Shown piece by piece: positions 51,305 through 64,000 of a DNA stretch of 64,000 bases (the stretch's first letter is position 1; each line of letters begins with the position of its first letter). Location of the stretch: the IMG/VR virus record IMGVR_UViG_3300022213_000237, positions 96,001-160,000 of that record; one strand, 5' to 3'. This stretch comes from a virus. The notes beneath the pieces were generated by a model. That model was not told the DNA's origin and ran no database searches. It was given only the letters and a program-made list of their open reading frames with translations. The translations under genes were made by a program, and so were the position numbers.

Positions 51305-53323
51305 ATGGCCGAAAACAAATCACCTCCAGGACCATTGCAGGCCGTCGTCGATGCTAAGGTACAGCGCTCCGGTGGGCGTATCAAATTCTCTCTTCATGAT
51401 ATCGATGAAGAAGGGAAGCTCCGCAAGTCCAAGGAAGAAGAAAATCCGTTGGCGGGTACCAAGCTTCAAAAAAGTTTCGTCAATTACACCGAAGACGTTA
51501 AGCGTGGGAAGGAAGTTAATCGTCTATCTTTTGAGGTAGACCCGACACACGCAAATTATTATCAGTCGTTGTGGATGCCTAAGTGGGGGCAACTTCCTGA
51601 CCATGTCTTAAAACAAGTCTCCCTAAAAGATTCGTTGGTCGCCTCGATACTCACCATGCGCTCAAGCCAGATGTCTGCGTTTGGACGCGAATTGCAAGAT
51701 CGCTTTGCTTCTGGTTATCGTATTGAGCCTCGGCCAGGTGTGATGGAAGATGCGTCCAATGAGCAAAAGGAGCTGCTCCAGAAGAGAATTGAAGATGCCA
51801 GTAAGTTGATTTCTACTTGCGGCTCTATCGAGGGGGTTCGTTTTGATGAGCGCATGTCTCTTTCTACCTTTTTGTCGCTGCAAACCCGCAACGCTCTAGT
51901 TTTTGGTCGTTTTGCCACAGAAATTATATACACCCGAGATCCAGACGGAACTCGTAAATTTCACAGCTACCGGCCTGTCGATGCTGGGACCATTTACCAA
52001 GCGGCACCACGTCAAGATCATCTCAATCAAGTACGTAAAGAGGCTCTGCACCTACTTCAGCAGCTAAAAGGGCCAGATGCAGAAAAATTGAGTGCAGAAA
52101 AGTTTGAAAACGACGAATACGCCTGGGTGCAGGTGCTGGATGGCAAGCCTCGGCAAGCCTACACACCGGAAGAGATGGTCGTTCATAACATGTTTCCGTT
52201 AACGGATATTGAGTTGCGGGGTTATCCGATTAGTCCGATTGAAACCGTAATCGATGGCATCGCCACCCATATGAACATTGTACAGCACAATAAACTGTAC
52301 TTTCAAAGTGGTCGAGCTGCCCGTGGTATGGTCGTCATTAAGTCACCGGACGTAGACCAGGGACTTGTGGCGCAAATACGTCAACATTTTAACGCGTCTA
52401 TTAATTCTGTTTCTAACGCTTGGCGTGTACCTGTTTTTGGTGTTGACCCCGAAGATAGCGTCGAATGGGCACCCTTTGATATGTCCTCGGGCCGTGACAT
52501 GGAGTTTCAATACCTATCTGACCAAAACGCGCGGGAAATTTGTTCTGCGTTCTTGATTTCGCCAGAAGAGCTACCCGGCTATCAGCACCTTAGTCGCGGC
52601 ACTAACTCTCAGGCGCTTAGCGAAAGCTCTAATGAGTATAAGCTTGAGGCTGCTCGAGATGTCGGTATCCGGCCTCTACTTAATCATTTCCAAGATTTCT
52701 TAAATGATCACATTTTACCTCTTATCGACCCCGCAGTTGCGCAGCTGTGCTCGCTAAAGCTCTACGGTCTCGATGCTGATACCGAAGAGAAAGAAGATAC
52801 AGGTCTCACCAATCGTATGCAGATTGACCTGACCATGGACGAAATCCTTGAGCGTAAGGAAAAAGATCCAGTTGGGAAAGAGTGGGGAGGGAAGTTTCTC
52901 TTCAATCCTGCTTGGCAGTCGGTGCTAGATAAGTATTTTAAGGTTTCGGACATCAAAAAACATTTCTTTGGGTTACAGCCCACAGAAGACGATGAATATG
53001 TAAGAGACCCCTTTTGGTTCAATTACCAACAGCTGAAGATGCAGGCAGAGCAAATGGAGCAACAAGCTCAGGCGCAACAACAGCAAGCTCAAGCCGAGAG
53101 CGGTGGTGAAGTCCAGGACGAAAGCCAAGAACAGGATTCTCAATTAGCTCAAAGCGCAGACAAAGCCATTGATTTGATGAGCAAGAGCGAGAAACAACTG
53201 CCTCCCGGTAAACGGCGTTTGTTACATCTACACAAGAAAATCGTGAAAGACGCCATGGCGGAATGGGAAAAAGACAGTAAAGAAGCCTTGGCTGCGGTCG
53301 TGCAAGCCGTGAAGGACGAATAA
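51305..53323 (+). CDS. Portal protein
   Basis: RPVDAGTI, GYPISPIE, YFQSG..ARG, DMEFQ..REICSAFLISPEEL, GIRPLL; position after terminase. Confidence 0.9.
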   Translation: MAENKSPPGPLQAVVDAKVQRSGGRIKFSLHDIDEEGKLRKSKEEENPLAGTKLQKSFVNYTEDVKRGKEVNRLSFEVDPTHANYYQSLWMPKWGQLPDHVLKQVSLKDSLVASILTMRSSQMSAFGRELQDRFASGYRIEPRPGVMEDASNEQKELLQKRIEDASKLISTCGSIEGVRFDERMSLSTFLSLQTRNALVFGRFATEIIYTRDPDGTRKFHSYRPVDAGTIYQAAPRQDHLNQVRKEALHLLQQLKGPDAEKLSAEKFENDEYAWVQVLDGKPRQAYTPEEMVVHNMFPLTDIELRGYPISPIETVIDGIATHMNIVQHNKLYFQSGRAARGMVVIKSPDVDQGLVAQIRQHFNASINSVSNAWRVPVFGVDPEDSVEWAPFDMSSGRDMEFQYLSDQNAREICSAFLISPEELPGYQHLSRGTNSQALSESSNEYKLEAARDVGIRPLLNHFQDFLNDHILPLIDPAVAQLCSLKLYGLDADTEEKEDTGLTNRMQIDLTMDEILERKEKDPVGKEWGGKFLFNPAWQSVLDKYFKVSDIKKHFFGLQPTEDDEYVRDPFWFNYQQLKMQAEQMEQQAQAQQQQAQAESGGEVQDESQEQDSQLAQSADKAIDLMSKSEKQLPPGKRRLLHLHKKIVKDAMAEWEKDSKEALAAVVQAVKDE

Positions 53324-55323
53324 TGGCTAAGATCAAGCGCCTGTCTAAAAAGACGATGACTAAAATAGCCGACGCCGTCGACGCCCTCTTCGACAAAATG
53401 AAGGTGCGGCTTCTCGGCCCTCGTATGGTGGATAAGAAACTATTTATCACCTACAATCGCGAGAAATCGTTACCCGGTCTCTACGAGCAGGCGCATATCG
53501 AAGAGAAAGGTATTCCAGACAAGGAACATCTTGATCAATTGGTGCGTACCACTGAAAATTACTTAGAAGCAGTGCGTCATCGAGCGAAGGCTAAGACCGT
53601 GGTCGCGGTACAGTCATTTATGGCCGAAAATCCTGACGCTAATGTAACCGACGTCCTGGGTGGCGAACTTGCTGATATTTATGGTCAGGTTAAGCACGAG
53701 GTACGTAGGATTGCGGATACCGAAGCCCAGCATTTTCGCAATGTTGGTGTGATGGACGGTATTGTAAGAGTTAGCGCCGCCCACGGCATAAGTGATCCGA
53801 TAGTGTATTTTGTTACAGTCAGAGACCAATACAGATGCGAGGAATGTACCCGACTCCATTTGCTTGAAGACGGCATCACTCCACGTGTCTGGAAATTGTC
53901 CGAATTAGGACATGGATATCATCAAAAAGGTGATGAAAATCCAAAGGTTGGGGGACTACACCCACATTGTAGGTGCGTGTGGGATGGAAACGCACCTGTA
54001 ATTACAGAGTCTGGTATCAAACCACTTAAATCTGTAGAGATAGGCGACCGGGTATTGACTCATACTGGTAAGTTTAAGAAAGTTATTGGTACTTTTTCTA
54101 AAGATGGTCTACTGCCGGAGAAAACGGACGACGTATACCGAATAGAATTCAGGTCCCCGCTGGGAAAAATACACAAGCTGCGTGTTACCAACGATCACTT
54201 AATGTTAACTCAGCGTGGTTGGGTGAGGGCCGAGGCCCTGGTCCCCGGTAAAGATACATTAGAATATCTATTCGCTTCTTGTGAGACATGCAAAAAAGCA
54301 TTTCCTCATAATATTCAAAAGCCTCGAAAAAGATTCTGCTCTTATAAGTGTTCTATTTCTGACAAAATAGGTAAACCAAGTCCTACTCTTGGCAGGAAAG
54401 CTACACCAGAAGAAAAAGAGTTGAGATTAAAATCCATTAAAGCACTTTACGAAAAGAAGCACAAAACAACATTCCCCCAAAAGACTGTTAATTGTAACGG
54501 GTGCGGAAACGAGTTTACAGTTGAAACTGGGTATAGGGATAAGTCTGGACATTGGGTGTCTCGTAAGAATTATAAGCTCGAGTATTGCTCTCGATCGTGT
54601 ATTTCTAAGGCCATAGCTCTCAAACAATGGTCAAGTGCTGAACATAGACTTGCTGTTTCGGAAGCTAATCGAAAATCTATGTTAGAACAATATCGTACTG
54701 GCAGACGCAACCCTTTAGGTATTAAAGAAGCCAGGCAAGCTCTTTACGGTTTGGGTCGAGGCGGAAGTAAAGACGAGAAACGTTTGTATCAAACAATTAA
54801 AAGCTCTTACTTAGACGCCGAATCCAACTATTCGATAGGAAGATATTTTGCTGATGTTGCTATTCCATCTATTAAGACAGTTGTAGAGTGGGACGGTGGT
54901 GGTCACTGGCTTGATGTATATAAAGGCAAAAAGACTATGGAAGAAAAGATAGCTGAAGACGCAACTCGTGATGAGTTTATGAGAAGTTTGGGGTGGCACG
55001 TTCTCAGATATACAGAAGAAACAGGGTTTAGCACAATATTCGAAGATATCCGGAGGGTGGCTCAAAATTCTACTGGTCAATACTCATTCAGGCCTGTTGA
55101 AATTGTCAAAGTAGTTAGAATTCCAGCCAGCAAAGCCTCCCCTGGAAGGAGATTATATGATATAACTGTAGAGGATGATTCTTCTTTTGTTGTTATGGGT
55201 ATTGTTTCTCATAATTGTTCTATGACCACACTTCTTCCCGGATTCGGATTTGATAGTGCCGGTATGGTTGCGTGGAAGGGTGAACATCACGACGAGTTTG
55301 AGCGCCAGCGTGCAGGGCTTTAA
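53323..55323 (+). CDS. MuF/SPP1 gp7-like head morphogenesis protein with intein
   Basis: RRIADTE, D.YRCEEC, HPHCR/C split by an intein. Confidence 0.85.
   Translation: MAKIKRLSKKTMTKIADAVDALFDKMKVRLLGPRMVDKKLFITYNREKSLPGLYEQAHIEEKGIPDKEHLDQLVRTTENYLEAVRHRAKAKTVVAVQSFMAENPDANVTDVLGGELADIYGQVKHEVRRIADTEAQHFRNVGVMDGIVRVSAAHGISDPIVYFVTVRDQYRCEECTRLHLLEDGITPRVWKLSELGHGYHQKGDENPKVGGLHPHCRCVWDGNAPVITESGIKPLKSVEIGDRVLTHTGKFKKVIGTFSKDGLLPEKTDDVYRIEFRSPLGKIHKLRVTNDHLMLTQRGWVRAEALVPGKDTLEYLFASCETCKKAFPHNIQKPRKRFCSYKCSISDKIGKPSPTLGRKATPEEKELRLKSIKALYEKKHKTTFPQKTVNCNGCGNEFTVETGYRDKSGHWVSRKNYKLEYCSRSCISKAIALKQWSSAEHRLAVSEANRKSMLEQYRTGRRNPLGIKEARQALYGLGRGGSKDEKRLYQTIKSSYLDAESNYSIGRYFADVAIPSIKTVVEWDGGGHWLDVYKGKKTMEEKIAEDATRDEFMRSLGWHVLRYTEETGFSTIFEDIRRVAQNSTGQYSFRPVEIVKVVRIPASKASPGRRLYDITVEDDSSFVVMGIVSHNCSMTTLLPGFGFDSAGMVAWKGEHHDEFERQRAGL
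53974..55215 (+). mobile_element. Intein (414 aa) carrying Zn-finger and DUF559/Vsr-like endonuclease
   Basis: CVWDGNAP..TNDH..VSHN/C; internal CETC..FCSYKC, and YFADVA..VVEWDGGGHW..D..RDEFMRSLGWHVLR. Confidence 0.88.
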
Positions 55324-55481: not shown

Positions 55482-55553
55482 ATGGGTTTGTTGGACGCTA
55501 CCGGATTTGAGGTCACTGCGTTTACATTTTTGAGTGAAGACGTCAATGAATAA
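55482..55553 (+). CDS. Possible 23-aa leaderless leader peptide overlapping protease start
   Basis: ATG lies 6 nt after AATCTT; MGLLDATGFEVTAFTFLSEDVNE; its end overlaps ATG 55546. Confidence 0.3.
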   Translation: MGLLDATGFEVTAFTFLSEDVNE

Positions 55554-58500
55554 GCTAACTAAATCGATGGTTATTGATGGAATTGCAGCTTCACAAGCTA
55601 TTGATTCTTCAGGTGAAATCTTAGACATCGAAGGCTTAGATATTTCGTCAGTTAAAGAGGGTACGGCTCAAATAAATTACGAGCACCGCTCTGATTCGTC
55701 TGATGGGGCGAGCGCCAATGATATTATTGGCCATATCACTTACGCGAAGAAGATTTTTGGTCCCAAAGACTGCGAAAACGACCGACAACTTAAGTACTGG
55801 AATTCGGTCCAGTTACCGTTTGTGTACATCAAAGCCGAGCTTTTTGACGGTGAGGGGCATGTCGGAGCACAGGCAGCGGCGGCATTGATTCGATATTACC
55901 ACCTCCGACGCCTACCCCTTGTGGCGAGATACTCAATCGAGGGATCTACTTTAAAACGAGAAGGCAACACCCTCAAACGCTCTATAATGAAGAGGGTTTC
56001 TCTCACCGTAAAACCTTGTAATCGTTCATGCATTTCTGGTGTTCTTTCCGATGGCGAAAAACCCGAAGCTTCACCAGACGCGCTTGAAAGTCTTAAGCGT
56101 TTTGAGAATCCAGGTCGTGCGAAACTCGGCGGCTACGAAGGCGAATTCGAACCCGTGGTTTTAGACCCTCTTCAGAAGATGAGAGACGCGGTGGAATCGC
56201 TGCGTGAGATGAATAATCTCAATAAAGCTCTTTCAGCTGGCGGCTTTGATGCTGTCCCTACAACTCTTACTGGCGGAGCCGCACTTTCGGCTGAGAATTT
56301 TGGCGACGTTGAGAAGAGAAAGAAATTTATTAAGAATCAGGTTCTTGGCGCCGTACGTGATTGGCGAGGTCGTGGTGACCTTCGGAAGTTTCTGAAGCAT
56401 CGTATGCCCGACGCATCAGAGGACTTCATCAATCATTTTGCTGCTCTGGTCGAAGACTATCAACTTAAGAAGTTTGCCGACCTTGAAGCCAACCTAAATA
56501 AGGCAGTAGCTGGCGGCGCCGTTGCAGGTAAGACTCCAGCGGCTGCGATACAGCCCGCAGACAAACTGGCACCAAAGAAACCTGATTCTAAGGTCCAGAC
56601 CAAGGCCAAGGCACAAAAGCTGGCGACCGTGGAGCAACATCACGCCAAAGTCAAAGCCACACAAGAAAACGAAGATAACCTAACCGAAGCCGACCTTGGC
56701 GATCAACCTTTAACCGTGCGCGGTAAAGCGGTACGCGCGAACGACAATATCACGTCTCCTCATTTTGATGAGCGAACAGGTACTCTACACACTCAACGCG
56801 GGTCCTTCAAGATGTACTTGCCGCAGGAAGATAAATTCCCAGGCGCTTTAGAGTCATTCCATAACGCTCTGAATGATCCAAAGGCTACTCATTTCCATGA
56901 CTACGCTACCAGTAATTGGCTGAAGGTTCACAAACTTCTTAAGGAGGGTCGTCTGCCTCCGGAAGTGATTATGCACAGTGTGTTGTTTTCACAACTGAGT
57001 CCCAATACACCTGTCCCCATGCAGGAGCTAATGTACGGACATTTAGTGGACACCATGAAGGAAAAAGGGGTAGATGCCCGTTCGCCTTCATTCTCTTCTA
57101 TTAAAGACGATTGGATAGGCAGAGATACCGGTAAGAAATTCCCTGAAGTGGCGGGAGATTTTTTCCAACAGAATCAAGGAATCCGTCTCAAAAACCCAAC
57201 ATCTACTAGAGAAGCTGGAGATATGGGGAGTTTCATGCTTGCGAACAACAAGTTCAAAAACATGGAACAGTATCATGGTCTCCATAATTCGTTAGTGGAG
57301 CTGTTTGGTCGTCATAGTACCGATGCCCGCGCAGCCGTTTCCGAGCTTATGGGTCATAAGCATAAAGCCAACTTGTGGGAAGCAAGGCGTGCTCGCGAAA
57401 TCGAGAAAGGTAGACCCGATCCTGGTGAATATGCCGATGGCCCAGCAGTCCCAGGCCTAGCACCAAAGACTGGACGCTACATGGCGGCCATGATTGGCGG
57501 CGGCAACGTCCACGTGCCAGATACCCATTTTGCCCGTTATTTATTTGGTCTCGAGAAGGGTACGGATAAGCGTTCAATTGCTTACCTCAAAAACACTTTA
57601 TGGAATCCCAACAACAGTCACGTTCTTGAGGGTATCGATCGTTTTTACGCCACGAATCACCCAGCTGTCCAGCACATGATGGATCATCCTGTTTTTGGTA
57701 AACAGTTTGCTTCCCGCGAAGACGCTATTTTCCCCGCGTTCTGGAAGAATTGGATAGCTATCGCACCACACGAGCGAGCACGCAAAATGAAGACCATGGC
57801 TTACAACGAAGCCACGGACCATAAACCTTTCTGGGAAGCCATCGCTCCATTTACGAAAGCAGAAAACGACGATGTGAGCTTTGACTTTGGTGCTAATGCG
57901 GACACACATGCACATGCGCGTAAGGTTGTTAATCGATTACGAGAACCTAATCGTTCTGTGGGTCATGCTTTTGTGGATTATGTTGTTGGCAAGTCCCCAA
58001 AACGTCCAGATATTCACCCCGACCTGGAACGACATCTAGCTCGTCACGGCATTGTTGATCCAGCTGGATACGGATTCGATGAATCTGGCCGCAGTATGCG
58101 CCGACCTATTCCGGGTCCGCGTAAAATTGGTCGCGGCGAGGAGCCTCGAGACCTACACAGATTCAGGATGATGAATCGTGGCTGGGATCCCGGCTACGTC
58201 AAAGGCGAGCTAGAGAAGTCTGAATCCGGAAATACATTGCCGCAGCAAACGGCACGGCTGCATGCTCAATGGGTTGAGCAATACGGCGAGATTCCGGCGC
58301 AAATGCTATACTACGCTCACATCGTTCCTCAGCTGTTGCGCGCGAGCCGCAGAAACGAGAACGTGATTGTCAAGTTTCAGCGTATAGCCGAAGATTTACG
58401 TAAGGCCGTACCTCAAGACCCGCCATTGCCAGAATTACCTAAACACGACACCACAGGCTTACATGAGTTTCAGAATTCTTGGACTAAGCCCGGTGAAATC

Positions 58501-59622
58501 GAACTAACAGCCGGCCCATTCAAAGGCAGTAAGCTCGCATATCTTGGTAAGGATAGCTTGAAAGGTAAGCATTTTGCTAAAGCCCCGACCGGCGAACTAC
58601 ATACTCTACCATTTAGTCAGGAAGGCAAGGCGTTCAAAATCAATGTTCCGCCTCAACCCGTCAAATTGCCGGCGTATGTGGATGCAAATCAACATAGCGA
58701 TCCTCTTAATAAGACGTTTGCTCAGAAGTCGCTCTTACACGGCATTGATATCAATGATCGTGTGGGTCGCATCGAAACCGAAACACTTACGTCCAGCGCC
58801 CCAGGTGCCGGTTGGTATAAGAATCATGCGGGTGAGATGGGTTTGGTCAAACCTGATCCAAAAGGGGCTGCAGATTGGTGGGCTGATGAAGATCCAGAGT
58901 ATGTTCGTGCTCAAAAATCTTACGACTTGCCAAGTCGTGAAGCTTTGTATCCGGTCATGGCCAAAGAATTTTTCGGCATGGGTCAATATGTGCCCACTAC
59001 CGCCAAGTTTACTCATCCTAAGACGGGCGAGCCTATGTCCGTTCAGCAGCGAGTTGCTGGCGCCGAACATGTCGACATAGATGACGACGACCACGCCTAC
59101 AATTTACACAAACTCTACAGTCAAGGCGAGTTAGATAAGTTAGGCCTCATGGATATCTTGATGGGTAATAATGATCGCCATCAAGGTAATTTTATGATGA
59201 CTTCAAAAGAGCCACATGTTCATCTAATAGATAACGGATTATCTTTGGATTACAAGAATCCGTTGATACCTCACGAAGTATGGCTATCTCATCAATGGAT
59301 GACTGACCATATGCATGGGCATCCCAGCTTCGGCGCTCATCCGATTCATGCAGCCGCCACCAACTGGTTGCTTGGATTGGATCATGGAGAATTTGTTAAA
59401 CAACTTCTTAACCATGGTGTTCCCGAAAACATTGTCAAGCATGCGTCGCGACGCATGCAGGCTCTACAATTAGAAGCTGCGCAATCAAAACTCGACCCCG
59501 CGCAGCCGTTTACACGGGCCCGCGCTGGCCACGTTGTCGATAACCTCAATGGATTTGTCAATCGTTGGGGTTCACCATTTGTAGCGGCAAAACCTAAGGC
59601 CACAAATTCGGACTCAGAGTAA
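55546..59622 (+). CDS. Prohead protease polyprotein (protease + HhH-GPD-like + kinase-like domains)
   Basis: N-terminal HK97-type protease (GIAASQAIDSSGE, INYEH, YSIEG, VSLTVKPCN); VPGLAPKTG..VPDTHFAR; C-terminal DILMGNNDRHQGN..LIDNG. Confidence 0.8.
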   Translation: MNKLTKSMVIDGIAASQAIDSSGEILDIEGLDISSVKEGTAQINYEHRSDSSDGASANDIIGHITYAKKIFGPKDCENDRQLKYWNSVQLPFVYIKAELFDGEGHVGAQAAAALIRYYHLRRLPLVARYSIEGSTLKREGNTLKRSIMKRVSLTVKPCNRSCISGVLSDGEKPEASPDALESLKRFENPGRAKLGGYEGEFEPVVLDPLQKMRDAVESLREMNNLNKALSAGGFDAVPTTLTGGAALSAENFGDVEKRKKFIKNQVLGAVRDWRGRGDLRKFLKHRMPDASEDFINHFAALVEDYQLKKFADLEANLNKAVAGGAVAGKTPAAAIQPADKLAPKKPDSKVQTKAKAQKLATVEQHHAKVKATQENEDNLTEADLGDQPLTVRGKAVRANDNITSPHFDERTGTLHTQRGSFKMYLPQEDKFPGALESFHNALNDPKATHFHDYATSNWLKVHKLLKEGRLPPEVIMHSVLFSQLSPNTPVPMQELMYGHLVDTMKEKGVDARSPSFSSIKDDWIGRDTGKKFPEVAGDFFQQNQGIRLKNPTSTREAGDMGSFMLANNKFKNMEQYHGLHNSLVELFGRHSTDARAAVSELMGHKHKANLWEARRAREIEKGRPDPGEYADGPAVPGLAPKTGRYMAAMIGGGNVHVPDTHFARYLFGLEKGTDKRSIAYLKNTLWNPNNSHVLEGIDRFYATNHPAVQHMMDHPVFGKQFASREDAIFPAFWKNWIAIAPHERARKMKTMAYNEATDHKPFWEAIAPFTKAENDDVSFDFGANADTHAHARKVVNRLREPNRSVGHAFVDYVVGKSPKRPDIHPDLERHLARHGIVDPAGYGFDESGRSMRRPIPGPRKIGRGEEPRDLHRFRMMNRGWDPGYVKGELEKSESGNTLPQQTARLHAQWVEQYGEIPAQMLYYAHIVPQLLRASRRNENVIVKFQRIAEDLRKAVPQDPPLPELPKHDTTGLHEFQNSWTKPGEIELTAGPFKGSKLAYLGKDSLKGKHFAKAPTGELHTLPFSQEGKAFKINVPPQPVKLPAYVDANQHSDPLNKTFAQKSLLHGIDINDRVGRIETETLTSSAPGAGWYKNHAGEMGLVKPDPKGAADWWADEDPEYVRAQKSYDLPSREALYPVMAKEFFGMGQYVPTTAKFTHPKTGEPMSVQQRVAGAEHVDIDDDDHAYNLHKLYSQGELDKLGLMDILMGNNDRHQGNFMMTSKEPHVHLIDNGLSLDYKNPLIPHEVWLSHQWMTDHMHGHPSFGAHPIHAAATNWLLGLDHGEFVKQLLNHGVPENIVKHASRRMQALQLEAAQSKLDPAQPFTRARAGHVVDNLNGFVNRWGSPFVAAKPKATNSDSE

Positions 59623-59626
59623 AGAT

Positions 59627-60079
59627 ATGATCTCCAACGGCATCTACAGACTATATAAGCTCCATCACGATGAGCTAAACAATACGACCCGGAGTCTAGC
59701 TGGACGAATTCTCGTACACGATGGGCAGATTGAGCACCTTGAAGATCATGGCGGCATGGACCGTTTACTACCCTCAGGTCCAGTCACTCCCGCGTTGGAG
59801 CGCAGATTCTCTCGTCTCACCTCCAGCGGTTACCACGAATTAATTAACGAAGCCGACATCGCGGCGGGCCATCATCCCGACGAAGTACAAGACCTAGATG
59901 TAGGTCCTGTTGAAGCAGAACATAAATTCATCATGACTGGCGATGGGGTTTCTACACCCGCAATGGTGGAAATGTGGGACGACATTATTACCGTCGATGG
60001 TCGTGAACTTGATGCTGTCGAAGCACACTCCCTACTCAATGAAGTAGCTGGCGGTAGGATTGTTCTTACACCAATCTAA
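59627..60079 (+). CDS. Hypothetical protein in head module
   Basis: 150-aa ORF. Confidence 0.55.
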   Translation: MISNGIYRLYKLHHDELNNTTRSLAGRILVHDGQIEHLEDHGGMDRLLPSGPVTPALERRFSRLTSSGYHELINEADIAAGHHPDEVQDLDVGPVEAEHKFIMTGDGVSTPAMVEMWDDIITVDGRELDAVEAHSLLNEVAGGRIVLTPI

Positions 60080-60108
60080 GATCTATCGCTATCCCGAGCA
60101 TAGGAACC

Positions 60109-61335
60109 ATGAGCAAAAATATTCTTAAACTTTTTGACGACCTCAAAAAAATGGACCCAACGCTCTCGCAAGCATTGGCAAATATTCGTGCTGGTCGCGC
60201 TACGCCTCAAGATGCAGATGTAGTCAGCAGGGGCCTATACACAGACACGATGATTCCGCGTATTGGCAATAAATACGCTTATAATGATCATGTTTCTCGA
60301 CACGCAAATGATGGCATCCATACCCATTTAGATTTAAACGATTTTCGTCAAATCAATAAACAGCATGGCCAGCAACACGGGGACGCCGCCATTAAACAAT
60401 TTGGTAACATTGCAGCCGACGTATCCCGCATGTTTGGCGGCAAAATGCATCGCCGTGGCGGCGACGAGTTTTCTGCTTGGTTTCATCGTCCGGAAGCTGC
60501 GCACGGGTTTGCGCGCGAACTCAGAAATCGGTTAGAGAAAACTCCTAAAGTCGCGGGTACACACAATCTCGCAGCTTCTATCGGTATCGGCTACACACCA
60601 GAGCATGCCGAGAAGGCCTTACTCGAGGCCAAAAAGCAACTTGGTTCCACGGATCCAACTACAGGTCAACGTGTTAATGTGCATAGTGTAGGAAACGCTC
60701 CTACCGTAATCCATAGCTTGACTCACGAACAGCCTCCCGAAAACTGGAAGCCATCTAAAGGTCAGGCGCCCGGCCAAGCCAAAGAGTTGCCATCTTTAGC
60801 TCCAGCCGGATTACAATTTAATAACCCGCTCGCAAAAAGTACTGCTAAACAGCCGGTACCCTCAAAACATCCGGCTCTAGAAGGTGGAAGAGTAGGTATC
60901 ATGACTGGTGAAAATCCTTTTCATCCGGCTACCGCCTCTGGCGGGAACGCGGGTCTCGAAAACGAGTTACGGAGTAGGGGGTTGCGTTTTGAGAAGGTTA
61001 AGGGAAAGTATTCTGAAGGTGAGCCAGAAAATAGTTTCATCATTCACGACGTCGATGCTCCAACGCTAATGGATTTAGGTAAACGCTACGGGCAAGACAG
61101 CGTACTCCATTCTCATAATGGTACTCATAAACTAATTTACACAAACGGACCTAATGAAGGCACATATCACCCTGGTCACGGATTAACGGTTCATCCACAA
61201 GAGCCGGAAATGTACTATTCGACCTTAGTCCATAATGGGAATCCGGTTCACTTCACTATGAACTTGGATTTTGATCAGAAACTTCCTTTGTCTTCTCATT
61301 CGACTCAGAAGCCTTCGAACCACGAGCAGCAATAA
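60109..61335 (+). CDS. GGDEF diguanylate cyclase-like protein with C-terminal DUF3293-like domain
   Basis: D..PRIGNK, DLNDFRQIN..HG..HGD, RGGDEF, ASIGI; C-terminal IMTGENP..L..RG..E.SF..GKRYGQDSV. Confidence 0.85.
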   Translation: MSKNILKLFDDLKKMDPTLSQALANIRAGRATPQDADVVSRGLYTDTMIPRIGNKYAYNDHVSRHANDGIHTHLDLNDFRQINKQHGQQHGDAAIKQFGNIAADVSRMFGGKMHRRGGDEFSAWFHRPEAAHGFARELRNRLEKTPKVAGTHNLAASIGIGYTPEHAEKALLEAKKQLGSTDPTTGQRVNVHSVGNAPTVIHSLTHEQPPENWKPSKGQAPGQAKELPSLAPAGLQFNNPLAKSTAKQPVPSKHPALEGGRVGIMTGENPFHPATASGGNAGLENELRSRGLRFEKVKGKYSEGEPENSFIIHDVDAPTLMDLGKRYGQDSVLHSHNGTHKLIYTNGPNEGTYHPGHGLTVHPQEPEMYYSTLVHNGNPVHFTMNLDFDQKLPLSSHSTQKPSNHEQQ

Positions 61336-61567
61336 AACAGATCTTACATTGTGCCCGATTAGGGTAGAAGCATAAATCCGCCGGCAGAAGCTGCTGACAG
61401 ATTTTACATTGTTTTAATCCACACGGAATTTTTTGTCGCCGTTTAACTCTACACAGACGACAATGACTTTGTACCGGCCTTATTCTATCTGGTGATTTTT
61501 TCAGATGGAATTCTGATTCATCTTTTTCAAGACCGCATTTCGAGCATTTGTATTTTTTGTTGGTCAC
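61256..61567 (-). CDS. Small double Zn-finger protein
   Basis: CSKC..EF..QSHCRLC and CKIC..CKIC. Confidence 0.6.
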   Translation of the reverse strand: MTNKKYKCSKCGLEKDESEFHLKKSPDRIRPVQSHCRLCRVKRRQKIPCGLKQCKICQQLLPADLCFYPNRAQCKICFIAARGSKASESNEKTKEVSDQNPSS

Positions 61568-61672
61568 ATTGAAAAGATTACTGTTTCATTTTTGGTGATC
61601 CGTTAAAGCCCCAATCTCCCAGAATGTAAGAGGGAACTATCCTCTTTAAAACTTCTTTCAAGGAGCTAACAG

Positions 61673-62122
61673 ATGGCCGCCACACAAAAAGCCGTTGCTA
61701 TTGCACGCCAACTTGCTGAAAACCTCGCACTTCGCACCGGCCTCGCTGCCGTTTCGGGCGTTGACGCATCAGGTAACCCCACTATCGCCCTGGGCACTCA
61801 GTCTGCTGGACAGCAGGCCGCGTTTATCCGCGTGAAGCAAGACTATGATCCTGCTCTCGAAGTGGACGGCGTCGGTAACGCTCAACGTCGCTACACCCCC
61901 CACGTTATTCAGGTGGTTCTTGAGACCTCGACGATTGCCAACGTTCCTCTTATGACCGGTGCAAATCAGGTCATGATGTGGAAAGAGGTTGAAGTGTTCG
62001 GCACCAAGATCCAGCTCTACATGACCGCCAATACGACTGCTGTCAGCGTCACCGGTATCGATGCTGCCAACTTGAAGGCGACCGTGGATGATCTCTGGCA
62101 GCCGATGTTGTCGACCATCTAA
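61673..62122 (+). CDS. Probable head structural protein
   Basis: AAGGAG RBS; upstream of scaffold and capsid genes. Confidence 0.5.
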   Translation: MAATQKAVAIARQLAENLALRTGLAAVSGVDASGNPTIALGTQSAGQQAAFIRVKQDYDPALEVDGVGNAQRRYTPHVIQVVLETSTIANVPLMTGANQVMMWKEVEVFGTKIQLYMTANTTAVSVTGIDAANLKATVDDLWQPMLSTI

Positions 62123-62161
62123 TTCGTCTTCCCACCCTTCACTCTTTACTACGAGTCTACA

Positions 62162-63088
62162 ATGCCTAAAAAGACTTACACAAACGAAGAGCTGAACGCG
62201 CTGGTGGCCGAGTTTTCCGCAGAGTTCGACCAGCTCGTTAAAGCAGAAGTCGCAAAAAGCGGTGCTGCTTTAGCCAAGTCTGAAGAACTTCGTAAGGACG
62301 ATGAGTCCAGCGATGGAGATGACCAGAAGTCGCCTCCTCCAGACAGCGCTTCCGCAGATGCTTCTTCACCTGCTCCGGCAGCTTCCGCAACTTCTCCAGA
62401 CCCAGCTTCTCCTGCAGACGCTTCGGCACCTCCTGCAGACGCTTCGGCACCTCCGGCTCCCGACGCTTCTGCTTCTGCTCCGGCAGACCCCGCAGCTTCT
62501 GCGGCAGGAAGCGATCCTATGGCGGCTCTGACTCAGGCGTATTCGCAACTCTCTCCAGATGAGTTGGCTATGCACTTTCAGGCGCTTAAGCAGGTTCTTA
62601 TGGCCGGTCAAGCTGGCGCCGAAGGCGCTGGAATGCCCGCAGACCCTATGGCAGGCTCTTCTGCTCCGGCTGCAGGTCCAGCAGCAGTAGCTCCTCTCGC
62701 AGGAGAAGGAAGCCAGCCTGTCGATCCAGCATCGACGATGGCGCTCAAGAGCGAAAACGAAGAATTGACTCTCGTCAAGTCTGAGCGTGATGCCGCCGCA
62801 ATGAAAATTGCGGAACTTGAGAAGTCCGTTGCTGCACTTACCGATTCACTCGGCAAAGTGTTGGCTCAGCCGATGCGAAAATCAATCACCGGCAAAGACA
62901 TCGCAGGTGTTCTTGCTACTGACCCGAAACCGGCTCCTAAGTATGAGTCGATGACGAAGTCTGAAATTACTAAAAAGCTACTCACTGTAGCTAACGACCC
63001 CGCACTGAAGAAGTCGGATCGTCAACTGATTAACAACTATTACAAGGGTGAAGCAAATGTCGAAGCCCTTGCACACCTTCTCAGCTAA
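62162..63088 (+). CDS. Capsid scaffold protein
   Basis: Ala/Pro/Asp low-complexity and coiled segments, many xxK-S motifs, directly before the capsid gene. Confidence 0.75.
   Translation: MPKKTYTNEELNALVAEFSAEFDQLVKAEVAKSGAALAKSEELRKDDESSDGDDQKSPPPDSASADASSPAPAASATSPDPASPADASAPPADASAPPAPDASASAPADPAASAAGSDPMAALTQAYSQLSPDELAMHFQALKQVLMAGQAGAEGAGMPADPMAGSSAPAAGPAAVAPLAGEGSQPVDPASTMALKSENEELTLVKSERDAAAMKIAELEKSVAALTDSLGKVLAQPMRKSITGKDIAGVLATDPKPAPKYESMTKSEITKKLLTVANDPALKKSDRQLINNYYKGEANVEALAHLLS
62411..62452 (+). repeat. 21-bp perfect tandem repeat in scaffold (PADASAP x2)
   Basis: cctgcagacgcttcggcacct twice. Confidence 0.9.
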
Positions 63089-63126
63089 TCCCTGAGATTT
63101 CATCTTCCCGTAAAGGAGATTACACA

Positions 63127-64000
63127 ATGGCCGCAGGACTAATTGAAAAGCTAGACGAGCTGCGCAAAGCTTTGGAAGCGGGTAACTTCAACGCCCGTCC
63201 TTCGAGCCTTGTTCAGGGCTCCGCAATGCAAGTGGAAGACATTTCGCCAGTGATGGTTAATGTCACCTACAATGACAAAACTCTTAAACTCCAGAAGAAA
63301 CTGGGAGTGAAGCCCGCGAAGGGAACCTTCATCCAGTTCCTACGACGTTTGTCGTACGGTACCTGGGGCGGATCCGCTCAGCTCGAAGGAGCAGTTGGTA
63401 ATGAGCAGACCGGTGATTACGTACGTGCCGGTATTCCGATGGCGTACTACTCGGAAGTTCGTCGCGTCACCCACGTGGCATCGCTCGTCAAGACTGTTAC
63501 TGGCGAAGATCCGAAAGAGCTGGAAGCGGAAGCCGCTGCTCTTCGTCTCGCTGGCGACATCGAGTTCGACTGTTTCCGTGGCAAGGCCGACTTCACCAAC
63601 GCAGGCGTGTTCGATGGTAACCCCAACGTCATCCCCGCGCTCGCGAACATGATTGGTCTCGAAGTTCAGATCCGTCAGTCCGATCTGCAGAGCAACACCC
63701 AGGACCTGATGTTCGAAGCCTACGGCTCGGGCCTCTCGGTCGTCATCAATGGTGGCTCGACGCTGTCGAAGAGCAACATCGAAGACGCTCATGTTCGTAG
63801 CCAGATGAACCACGGCACTGCGGACAAGCTCTTTGTCGACCCTCTCGTTCTGTCCGCACATAACAAAATTATGTGGAACAACGAGCGCGTGGTTCTCGGC
63901 GCTTCCGCCCAGGATGCGACCGGTCAAGACCTTCGTCGCCAGTTTGTTTCCGGCGGTATGGTCGAAATCGAAGCTTCCCGTTTCCTCTCGGGCAAGTTCA
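63127..64000 (+). CDS. Major capsid protein (3' truncated; not in ORF track)
   Basis: AAGGAG RBS; MAAGLIEKLDELRKALEAGNFNARPSSLVQGSAMQVEDIS..LAGDIEFDCFRG; pattern like SPO1/Twort-type capsid proteins; open to the window end. Confidence 0.9.
   Translation, partial: MAAGLIEKLDELRKALEAGNFNARPSSLVQGSAMQVEDISPVMVNVTYNDKTLKLQKKLGVKPAKGTFIQFLRRLSYGTWGGSAQLEGAVGNEQTGDYVRAGIPMAYYSEVRRVTHVASLVKTVTGEDPKELEAEAAALRLAGDIEFDCFRGKADFTNAGVFDGNPNVIPALANMIGLEVQIRQSDLQSNTQDLMFEAYGSGLSVVINGGSTLSKSNIEDAHVRSQMNHGTADKLFVDPLVLSAHNKIMWNNERVVLGASAQDATGQDLRRQFVSGGMVEIEASRFLSGKF

Follow-up and report, generated by a model that had tools for sequence, protein, structure and literature searches.

The 64,000-nucleotide stretch analysed here, referred to as the window, corresponds to bases 96001–160000 of a 169,567-bp IMG/VR virus record that is rated complete. 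The gene at 60109..61335 (plus strand, like its parts, the GATC box and the p150, protease-fusion, scaffold-like and capsid genes described below; ATG start, stop codon included) encodes a two-domain protein of 408 residues, P0001. From the N to the C terminus, the protein contains a 14-residue segment, a GGDEF domain of the diguanylate cyclase type, a disordered linker and a DUF3293 domain related in fold to S-adenosylmethionine (SAM) lyases. On its 5' side, the gene is preceded by an intein-bearing portal gene, a gene for a 1362-residue prohead-protease fusion and a 150-residue gene, designated p150. A 149-residue gene, an Ala/Pro-rich scaffold-like gene and the gene for the major capsid protein follow on the 3' side.

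The gene order portal–protease–p150–GGDEF–capsid protein is identical in Myxococcus phage Mx1 (OR576727.2), the only named relative. The Mx1 counterpart is a 243-residue 'nucleotide cyclase' (WNM70324.1) that shares 66–68% identity over the GGDEF part. The same order is kept in the metagenomic contigs L005, L006, L011 and L014, down to about 40% identity, and in 15 IMG/VR loci. The loci of relatives came from an alignment-based scan of viral contigs; a single-protein pattern scan confirmed none. Megablast of positions 59000–64000 against phage records gave zero matches. The Mx1-like lineage, made up of soil phages of 160–180 kb, has the GGDEF gene in the core of its head module. A first-pass annotation, made from the DNA alone, had assigned the gene to the head module and called for a search of phage genomes for GGDEF genes between protease and scaffold. 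The gene does lie between the prohead-protease fusion (55534–59622) and the scaffold-like and capsid genes, and the search, now made, finds such genes at the same place in Mx1 and in more than 20 uncultured relatives.

In a subset of relatives, the GGDEF module is covalently joined to head proteins. A single uninterrupted frame of 1237 residues in L035 consists of a protease (44% identity over 824 residues), p150 and a motif-intact GGDEF module, and L026 (1648 residues) and L034 have the same build. In about 15 loci, p150 is fused directly to GGDEF. The fusions came from the viral-contig loci; a search for longer homologues yielded a four-module form, P0188, and no protease fusion. Prohead proteases act inside the prohead. 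Because the GGDEF module is covalently fused in relatives to a protease that works there, the module probably enters the capsid, and the protease–p150–GGDEF fusions are the strongest evidence here for capsid entry. The suggestion of the first-pass annotation that the cyclase might be packaged thereby gains independent, comparative support.

The GGDEF domain spans residues 46–205 (60244..60723). The Pfam GGDEF profile (PF00990) matches residues 63–170 with an E-value of 4.6e-11 and 43.2 bits (cut-off 23.8), and the genome search gives 45.4 bits. An AlphaFold2 model built on 20 homologues has a predicted local distance difference test score (pLDDT) above 90 throughout the domain. The model can be superimposed on DgcB, WspR, PleD and SadC with Z-scores of 16–17 and root mean square deviations (rmsd) of 1.9–2.3 Å over 137–141 residues. 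About 25 further cyclase structures superpose at Z 16–17, with some 138 residues aligned at about 2 Å, and Foldseek returns many diguanylate cyclase structures at E-values of about 1e-6. The similarity is lower to class III cyclases (Z at most 12.7) and to mCpol (Z 11.8). A palm of the mCpol or Cas10 type was rejected on the basis of this Z of 11.8 versus 16–17 for diguanylate cyclases.

The signature motif occupies residues 117–121 (60457..60471) in the sequence R115-R116-G117-G118-D119-E120-F121. The candidate substrate and metal residues D75, in DLNDF, and N83 and D92, in IN...HGD, lie at 60331..60384. HMMER alignments to SadC and GcbC place D75, N83, D92 and G117–F121 on the counterparts of D327, N335, D344 and GGEEF of PleD, which are reported to be metal-binding, guanine-binding, essential or substrate-binding residues (PMC7288161). 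In addition, the helix A167-E-x-A-L-L-x-A-K175 is similar to the A-D-x-A-L-Y-x-A-K helix of cyclases, in the region of PleD K442. Seven positions do not vary across 23 homologues with 40–69% identity (D75, N83, G118, D119, E120, K175 and R188), and conservation reaches at least 90% at D92 and R115. Because the D75, N83, D92 and GGDEF residues are conserved at these levels of identity, we read the domain as a divergent, probably catalytically competent cyclase with a guanine-specific active site under selection. A Hypr-type GGDEF, which makes cyclic GMP-AMP (cGAMP), was rejected since D92 is an Asp and Hypr enzymes have a Ser. Recent capture from a host was also rejected, as the family is distant from cellular GGDEF domains and conserved through the phage lineage.

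Residues 108–111 have the sequence MFGG at the place, five residues before GGDEF, that the RxxD motif of an inhibitory I-site would occupy; this motif is optional and does not define diguanylate cyclases. It is missing from this place in all 40 family members and in the fused relatives inspected. Residues 1–62 are modelled as three helices by AlphaFold2 and match no Pfam domain. The first-pass annotation had described a GGDEF domain with the motifs listed above, no RxxD and no recognisable sensor domain, and the Pfam score, the fold and the aligned residues bear out that description. It had further proposed an unregulated cyclase, which does not follow: a missing I-site and a missing Pfam sensor do not show that a cyclase is unregulated. 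Because p150 is fused in front of GGDEF in many relatives, it is a candidate partner and may regulate the cyclase. Dimerisation and proteolytic processing could gate the activity as well. A homodimer prediction with residues 1–215 scored 0.01, which gives no answer and speaks neither for nor against pairing. The genome domain search found no second GGDEF, EAL or PilZ domain in the genome; therefore, any product would act on receptors of the host.

The linker, residues 206–255 (60724..60873), is disordered, with pLDDT below 50 at residues 219–251. It contains the motif G-L-x-F-x-N239-P240-L241-x-K243 (60823–60840), of which N239, P240 and L241 are conserved. The L241-x-K243 element, part of L241-A242-K243-S244, marks the junction between cyclase and cargo. 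At the opposite end of the module, the N-terminal 14 residues (60109..60150) terminate in L12-x-K14 and may represent a propeptide or a site of processing. Both L12 and K14 reach at least 90% conservation in the GGDEF family, and the segment is homologous to the p150–GGDEF junction of fused relatives. In the fused L017, L019, L021 and L025, the module opens with a conserved x-[DE]-P-x-L..AL, and an L-x-K immediately precedes it.

L-x-K motifs are thus found at both borders of the GGDEF module (K14 and K243), in free and fused forms, and they recur in the neighbouring head proteins. The scaffold-like protein (62162..63088) is rich in [LMF]-x-K-[SA], with 7 copies observed versus 0.9 expected, and the protease fusion has 7 versus 2.35. 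These are the top two excesses of the motif among 188 open reading frames (ORFs). The major capsid protein (63127..64000, extending past the end of the window; PHROG 752) has L-R-K-A at residues 12–15, and all four capsid protein orthologues have L-x-K-A at residues 12–17, ahead of a conserved segment. This distribution is consistent with a cut at each end of the cyclase module, after K14 and K243.

The part that follows the linker is variable. About half of 40 homologues end 1–8 residues past the conserved N-P-L, often at a Lys. The remaining ones continue with DUF3293, with DUF3293 and further domains, or with an HExxH-bearing domain. The other cargo domains of relatives have no Pfam match, and 'HExxH domain' denotes a motif observation only. 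In Mx1, DUF3293 is located within WNM70344.1, beside the tail sheath gene, and the orthologue of this protein in the present genome has no DUF3293. On these comparisons, the DUF3293 domain is mobile among structural-module proteins. The Mx1 protein hosting DUF3293, P0041 (OR576727.2 37603–39282; L004:9604–11283), is a low-complexity protein of 559 residues in which near-identical short repeats of the type K-M-E-M-P-A-T-K-E-x-A-N-G-G flank the domain on both sides. The repeats may be processing or linker elements.

A constant N-terminal part placed before variable cargo is also what would be expected if the GGDEF domain were catalytically silent, a component of the head core or of assembly that brings cargo into the prohead. 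A paralogue-like form, P0017, would suit such a structural or carrier role, as its metal-binding Asp and its guanine-binding residues are gone while GGDDF is kept. However, the catalytic and substrate-binding residues are invariant at 40–69% identity in the main family, which points to selection on catalysis, and cargo is entirely absent from about half of the homologues. A carrier role is accordingly the least probable of the alternatives considered, and we regard it as very improbable.

The C-terminal domain comprises residues 256–395 (60874..61293). Pfam DUF3293 (PF11697) matches residues 280–332 with 26.4 bits for the full-length protein and 27.2 bits for the domain alone (cut-off 25). The S-AdoMet_lyase profile (PF23780, cut-off 28) scores 25.6 bits with the full protein, which is below threshold, and 28.2 bits with the domain alone. 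The two profiles are matched by 32 and 27 of 34 relatives of the domain, respectively, the latter at E-values up to 0.01. A search of 1.84 billion representative proteins with residues 245–408 identified 832 relatives (representative clusters). Many are located at the N terminus of proteins of 500–2800 residues, and others stand alone at about 160 residues. Few known domains (GNAT, LRV) were found by Pfam in the giant DUF3293-bearing proteins. A full-text literature search gave no match for DUF3293.

A model of the domain built on 34 relatives has a pLDDT of 94. Its standout structural match is T3 SAM lyase (7ock_L), with a Z-score of 10.4 and an rmsd of 3.8 Å over 127 aligned residues. The Svi3-3 SAM lyase (6zm9) gives Z 6.0, and unrelated chains give at most 4.8. 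The top two PDB matches in Foldseek are chains of T3 SAM lyase, and phage SAM hydrolases are among the matches in BFVD. Y301 (61009–61011), E307 (61027–61029) and Q329 (61093–61095) are invariant in the 34 relatives. Enzymes of the SAM-lyase superfamily share a catalytic Glu (T3 E68, Svi3-3 E69, Cbo E71) and a conserved Gln (PMC7877911, PMC12255297), T3 E68 being the counterpart of the catalytic Glu69 of Svi3-3 (PMC7877911). SAM lyases are trimers whose active sites lie at the subunit interfaces, and they split SAM into MTA and homoserine lactone.

Three lines of evidence connect the domain with SAM lyases, namely its fold, the Pfam profile and a weak alignment by hhalign, and it is best read as a member of the SAM-lyase superfamily. 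The first-pass annotation had noted the LAKS-containing linker and a fusion to a DUF3293-like domain, both of which stand, and had missed this relationship. SAM lyase overcomes SAM-dependent restriction and bacteriophage exclusion (BREX) systems (PMC8406200, PMC12255297). The superfamily also includes SAM-AMP lyases, which destroy a type III CRISPR signal (PMC12255297). The substrate of the C-terminal domain may be SAM, SAM-AMP or a related compound, and the domain probably has an enzymatic role of its own, of an anti-defence type. A palm-type nucleotide cyclase is joined to DUF3293 a second time, independently, in P0048 (L012:2234–4840), an 868-residue protein on an 8.5-kb metagenomic contig, in which an N-terminal mCpol domain (PF18182, E 7e-12) precedes a C-terminal DUF3293.

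Domain identities, residue conservation, synteny, fusions and motif positions are together best explained if the product of 60109..61335 is a two-enzyme 'polyvalent' head-cargo protein of an Mx1-like myxophage, cut by the protease and delivered with the DNA. We assign this reading a probability of roughly 0.55. The first module (residues ~15–243) would be a GGDEF diguanylate cyclase without an I-site, of which two paired copies would condense two molecules of guanosine triphosphate (GTP) into cyclic diguanosine monophosphate (c-di-GMP). The second (residues ~256–395), the DUF3293 domain of the SAM-lyase superfamily, would use the invariant Glu/Gln/Tyr set to cleave SAM or a SAM-derived signal, for example SAM-AMP. 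The protein would be made alongside the head proteins, enter the prohead with the protease/p150 system and be cut at the conserved L-x-K sites, probably after K14 and K243, before being ejected with the DNA into a new host. In Myxococcus, c-di-GMP controls type IV pili, motility, exopolysaccharide and development. In the new host, a raised c-di-GMP level would reset pili, motility and polysaccharide, and SAM-dependent defence would be removed. A more specific form of the proposal is tentative: a feedback-insensitive cyclase and a SAM or SAM-AMP lyase would be loaded into the capsid through a protease-linked polyprotein system, so that infection would begin with a phage-made second-messenger pulse and the loss of a defence cofactor or signal, ahead of the expression of any phage gene.

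Several observations weigh against the delivered two-enzyme reading, and those on the enzymes come first. The PF00990 match is limited to profile positions 27–143 of 161, and cellular GGDEF domains are distant, with best PDB sequence E-values of about 1e-4 to 1e-9. The DxD motif has an Asn, N77, at the position of its second Asp. The canonical GRN, which provides R446 in PleD, is replaced by L178-G179, and the R446 counterpart is ambiguous. The sole candidate equivalent is the invariant R188, which lies past a hairpin insertion of about 20 residues and is aligned by HMMER with the Arg of the SadC GRN. For the C-terminal domain, hhalign places Y301, E307 and Q329 on Y57, E68 and Q94 of T3 SAM lyase with an alignment probability of 1.4%, and a search of PDB sequences with the domain profile found no SAM lyase, only chance matches to cadherins.

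This divergence, together with N77 and the ambiguous R446 equivalent, would also suit a GGDEF-type domain that makes another cyclic or linear (oligo)nucleotide, serving as a decoy or competitor against host signalling by the cyclic-oligonucleotide-based anti-phage signalling system (CBASS) or type III CRISPR. The fusion of DUF3293 to an mCpol cyclase in the phage-like P0048 and the membership of SAM-AMP lyases in the superfamily of the C-terminal domain agree with such a role. Interference with host nucleotide signalling was raised as an option by Iyer et al. (2017; PMC5512222), and a CBASS/III-B island of M. xanthus blocks Mx4, whereas Mx1 resists it (PMC11506125). The resistance of Mx1 is compatible with extra counter-measures and says nothing specific about the GGDEF gene. 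Against a different product, N83 and D92 are kept as the guanine-binding pair that guanine-specific cyclases have, position 92 does not carry the Ser found in cGAMP-making Hypr enzymes, and the fold is nearer to diguanylate cyclases than to mCpol or class III cyclases by the Z-scores given above. Because the guanine-binding and catalytic residues are conserved, a different product, like a purely structural role, appears less likely, and we consider it improbable.

Other points bear on delivery. The position among head genes indicates co-expression, not packaging, and the L-x-K site is drawn from motif statistics only. The literature search found no study of what the Mx1 homologue WNM70324.1 does, and the Mx1 genome paper is silent on it. 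In addition, a GATC-N4-G-N-TA box identified by motif search lies at 60080..60091, 25 nt before the ATG. The box is a possible gene-specific promoter and could drive expression independently of the head operon. The motif has 85 matches in the genome, 53 of them before ORF starts, with a modal spacing of 18–20 nt.

A head-module position that shows timing only, and a box of a class found before so many ORF starts, would be in line with a late cytoplasmic enzyme that is not packaged, co-expressed with head genes or made from its own promoter. Such an enzyme would raise c-di-GMP and remove SAM in the producing cell, where it could stop motility and pili, exclude superinfection, disturb development or sporulation, or keep progeny DNA unmethylated. 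There is precedent for both activities inside the cell: T3 SAM lyase works as an expressed cytoplasmic enzyme (PMC7877911, PMC8406200), and a phage peptide is known to raise host c-di-GMP intracellularly (PMC8085984). However, the covalent fusions of GGDEF to prohead protease in relatives are hard to square with a purely cytoplasmic role. The box is absent in Mx1, L005 and L011, in which the GGDEF gene abuts or overlaps the upstream head gene, and its 25-nt spacing in the present genome is off the genomic mode. The variable C-terminal cargo is also similar to that of injected polyvalent proteins. A solely cytoplasmic enzyme is therefore rather unlikely, though it is the most serious of the alternatives to delivery with the DNA.

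Enzymes or anti-restriction proteins that are loaded into the prohead, trimmed by the prohead protease at a short motif and injected with the DNA are known from T4, namely the ADP-ribosyltransferase Alt and the internal proteins IPI–III, whose capsid-targeting sequence is cut by gp21. The T4 prohead protease cuts after Glu in L/I-x-E. Compared with the T4 head cargo, the candidate motif described here ends in Lys, the cargo enzymes differ, and packaging is only inferred.

The GGDEF domain resembles bacterial diguanylate cyclases such as PleD, WspR, DgcB and SadC in its fold, GG(D/E)EF loop, metal-binding Asp, guanine-binding Asn and Asp, and A-x-x-A-K Lys. It differs from them in lacking an I-site and a receiver or sensor domain, and the sequence identity is only about 20–25%. 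It also possesses a ~20-residue hairpin in place of GRN, N77, and a conserved disordered tail that ends in NPL-x-K, and it is encoded in a phage head operon. The orthologue WNM70324.1 of Mx1 occupies the same position between prohead protease and capsid protein; unlike the present 408-residue protein, it ends at 243 residues, one residue past NPL.

GGDEF domains are listed among the domains of phage and plasmid 'polyvalent proteins', which are predicted to be delivered together with DNA (Iyer, Burroughs, Anand, de Souza and Aravind 2017; PMC5512222). Like these proteins, the present one joins enzyme domains of unrelated kinds in a single chain, has relatives with other sets of domains, and is encoded with virion genes, as seen in the head-module synteny and the protease–p150–GGDEF fusions; in both cases, delivery is a prediction. 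In contrast, the present GGDEF gene is a small conserved core gene of one lineage, tied to the prohead protease. Its GGDEF domain is bounded by L-x-K motifs and paired with a SAM-lyase-like domain, and the protein has no zincin domain, an HExxH domain being found in some relatives only. BFVD shows GGDEF in several phages, where the host proteins of the domain include one of ART-PolyVal-like type and a 'structural protein' of a Flavobacterium phage, and GGDEF-type proteins are also present in PHROGs families of no assigned function.

The C-terminal domain shares a PII-like fold with SAM lyases (T3 SAMase, Svi3-3) and SAM-AMP lyases (from C. botulinum, and the candidate AcrIIIB4), its invariant Glu and Gln are candidate counterparts of the catalytic Glu and conserved Gln of these enzymes, and both SAM lyases and this domain occur in a phage anti-defence setting. 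The identity to SAM lyases is about 14%, however, and the family of the domain is annotated only as DUF3293. Whereas T3 SAMase is the product of a free early gene, the present domain is fused to other domains in a structural module. The proposed effect on the host, a phage-driven rise of c-di-GMP, has a parallel in YIP, a small phage peptide that works by activating YfiN, a cyclase of the host (PMC8085984). The present phage, in contrast, would supply a synthase of its own.

The surrounding genes show further features. The prohead-protease fusion (55534..59622) has a PI3/PI4-kinase-like C-terminal region in Pfam, with the match at residues 1192–1242 (E 3e-7), and is another head protein bearing an enzyme domain. 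In two protease genes of relatives (L020:3424–3507 and L029:3219–3323), a peptide resembles residues 6–40 of the capsid protein with 54–64% identity; it may represent an element common to both proteins, for capsid interaction or as a propeptide. The product of the p150 gene (59627..60079) matches no known family and has a conserved H-L-E-D-H-like motif. The portal gene (53323–55323) contains an apparent intein with an endonuclease, as indicated by the Pfam families Intein_splicing, Hint and DUF559, the last a restriction-endonuclease-like family; PHROGs adds an HNH endonuclease family.

On the minus strand, a 103-residue ORF at 61256–61567 shares 80 nt with the 3' end of the GGDEF gene and has weak PHROG matches to endonuclease VII and HNH families. 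Relatives have full-length genes of the homing-endonuclease type at the same spot, a 294-residue Endonuclease_7 in L005 and a 189-residue gene in L006, and L006 also has a GIY-YIG gene directly upstream of GGDEF. The 103-residue ORF resembles a shortened remnant at a hotspot of homing. Past the end of the window, genome positions 166928–169468 hold an 846-residue stop-to-stop open frame. It contains several short linkers that end in S/G-K ahead of S/T-E, and one N-P-L-S-K motif similar to that in the linker of the GGDEF protein.

Phages are already known to destroy or sequester bacterial signalling nucleotides, and one phage peptide stimulates a host cyclase. The presence of GGDEF domains in polyvalent proteins of phages has been on record since 2017 (PMC5512222), a point that the first-pass annotation had missed. 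The literature search found no characterised phage-encoded GGDEF enzyme. Three points are new here, namely that the C-terminal domain is assigned to the SAM lyases, that it is mobile between proteins of the structural module, and that L-x-K motifs border the cyclase module. Mx1 and Myxococcus xanthus can be cultivated, which makes the idea directly testable. If the protein is packaged and active, DUF3293, with its 832 representative-cluster relatives, would gain a testable function. The capsid-loading reading, if true, would provide the first demonstrated virion-delivered synthase of a second messenger. Phages with a packaged and active enzyme of this kind would reprogramme host pili, motility, polysaccharide and myxobacterial development at the moment of DNA entry.

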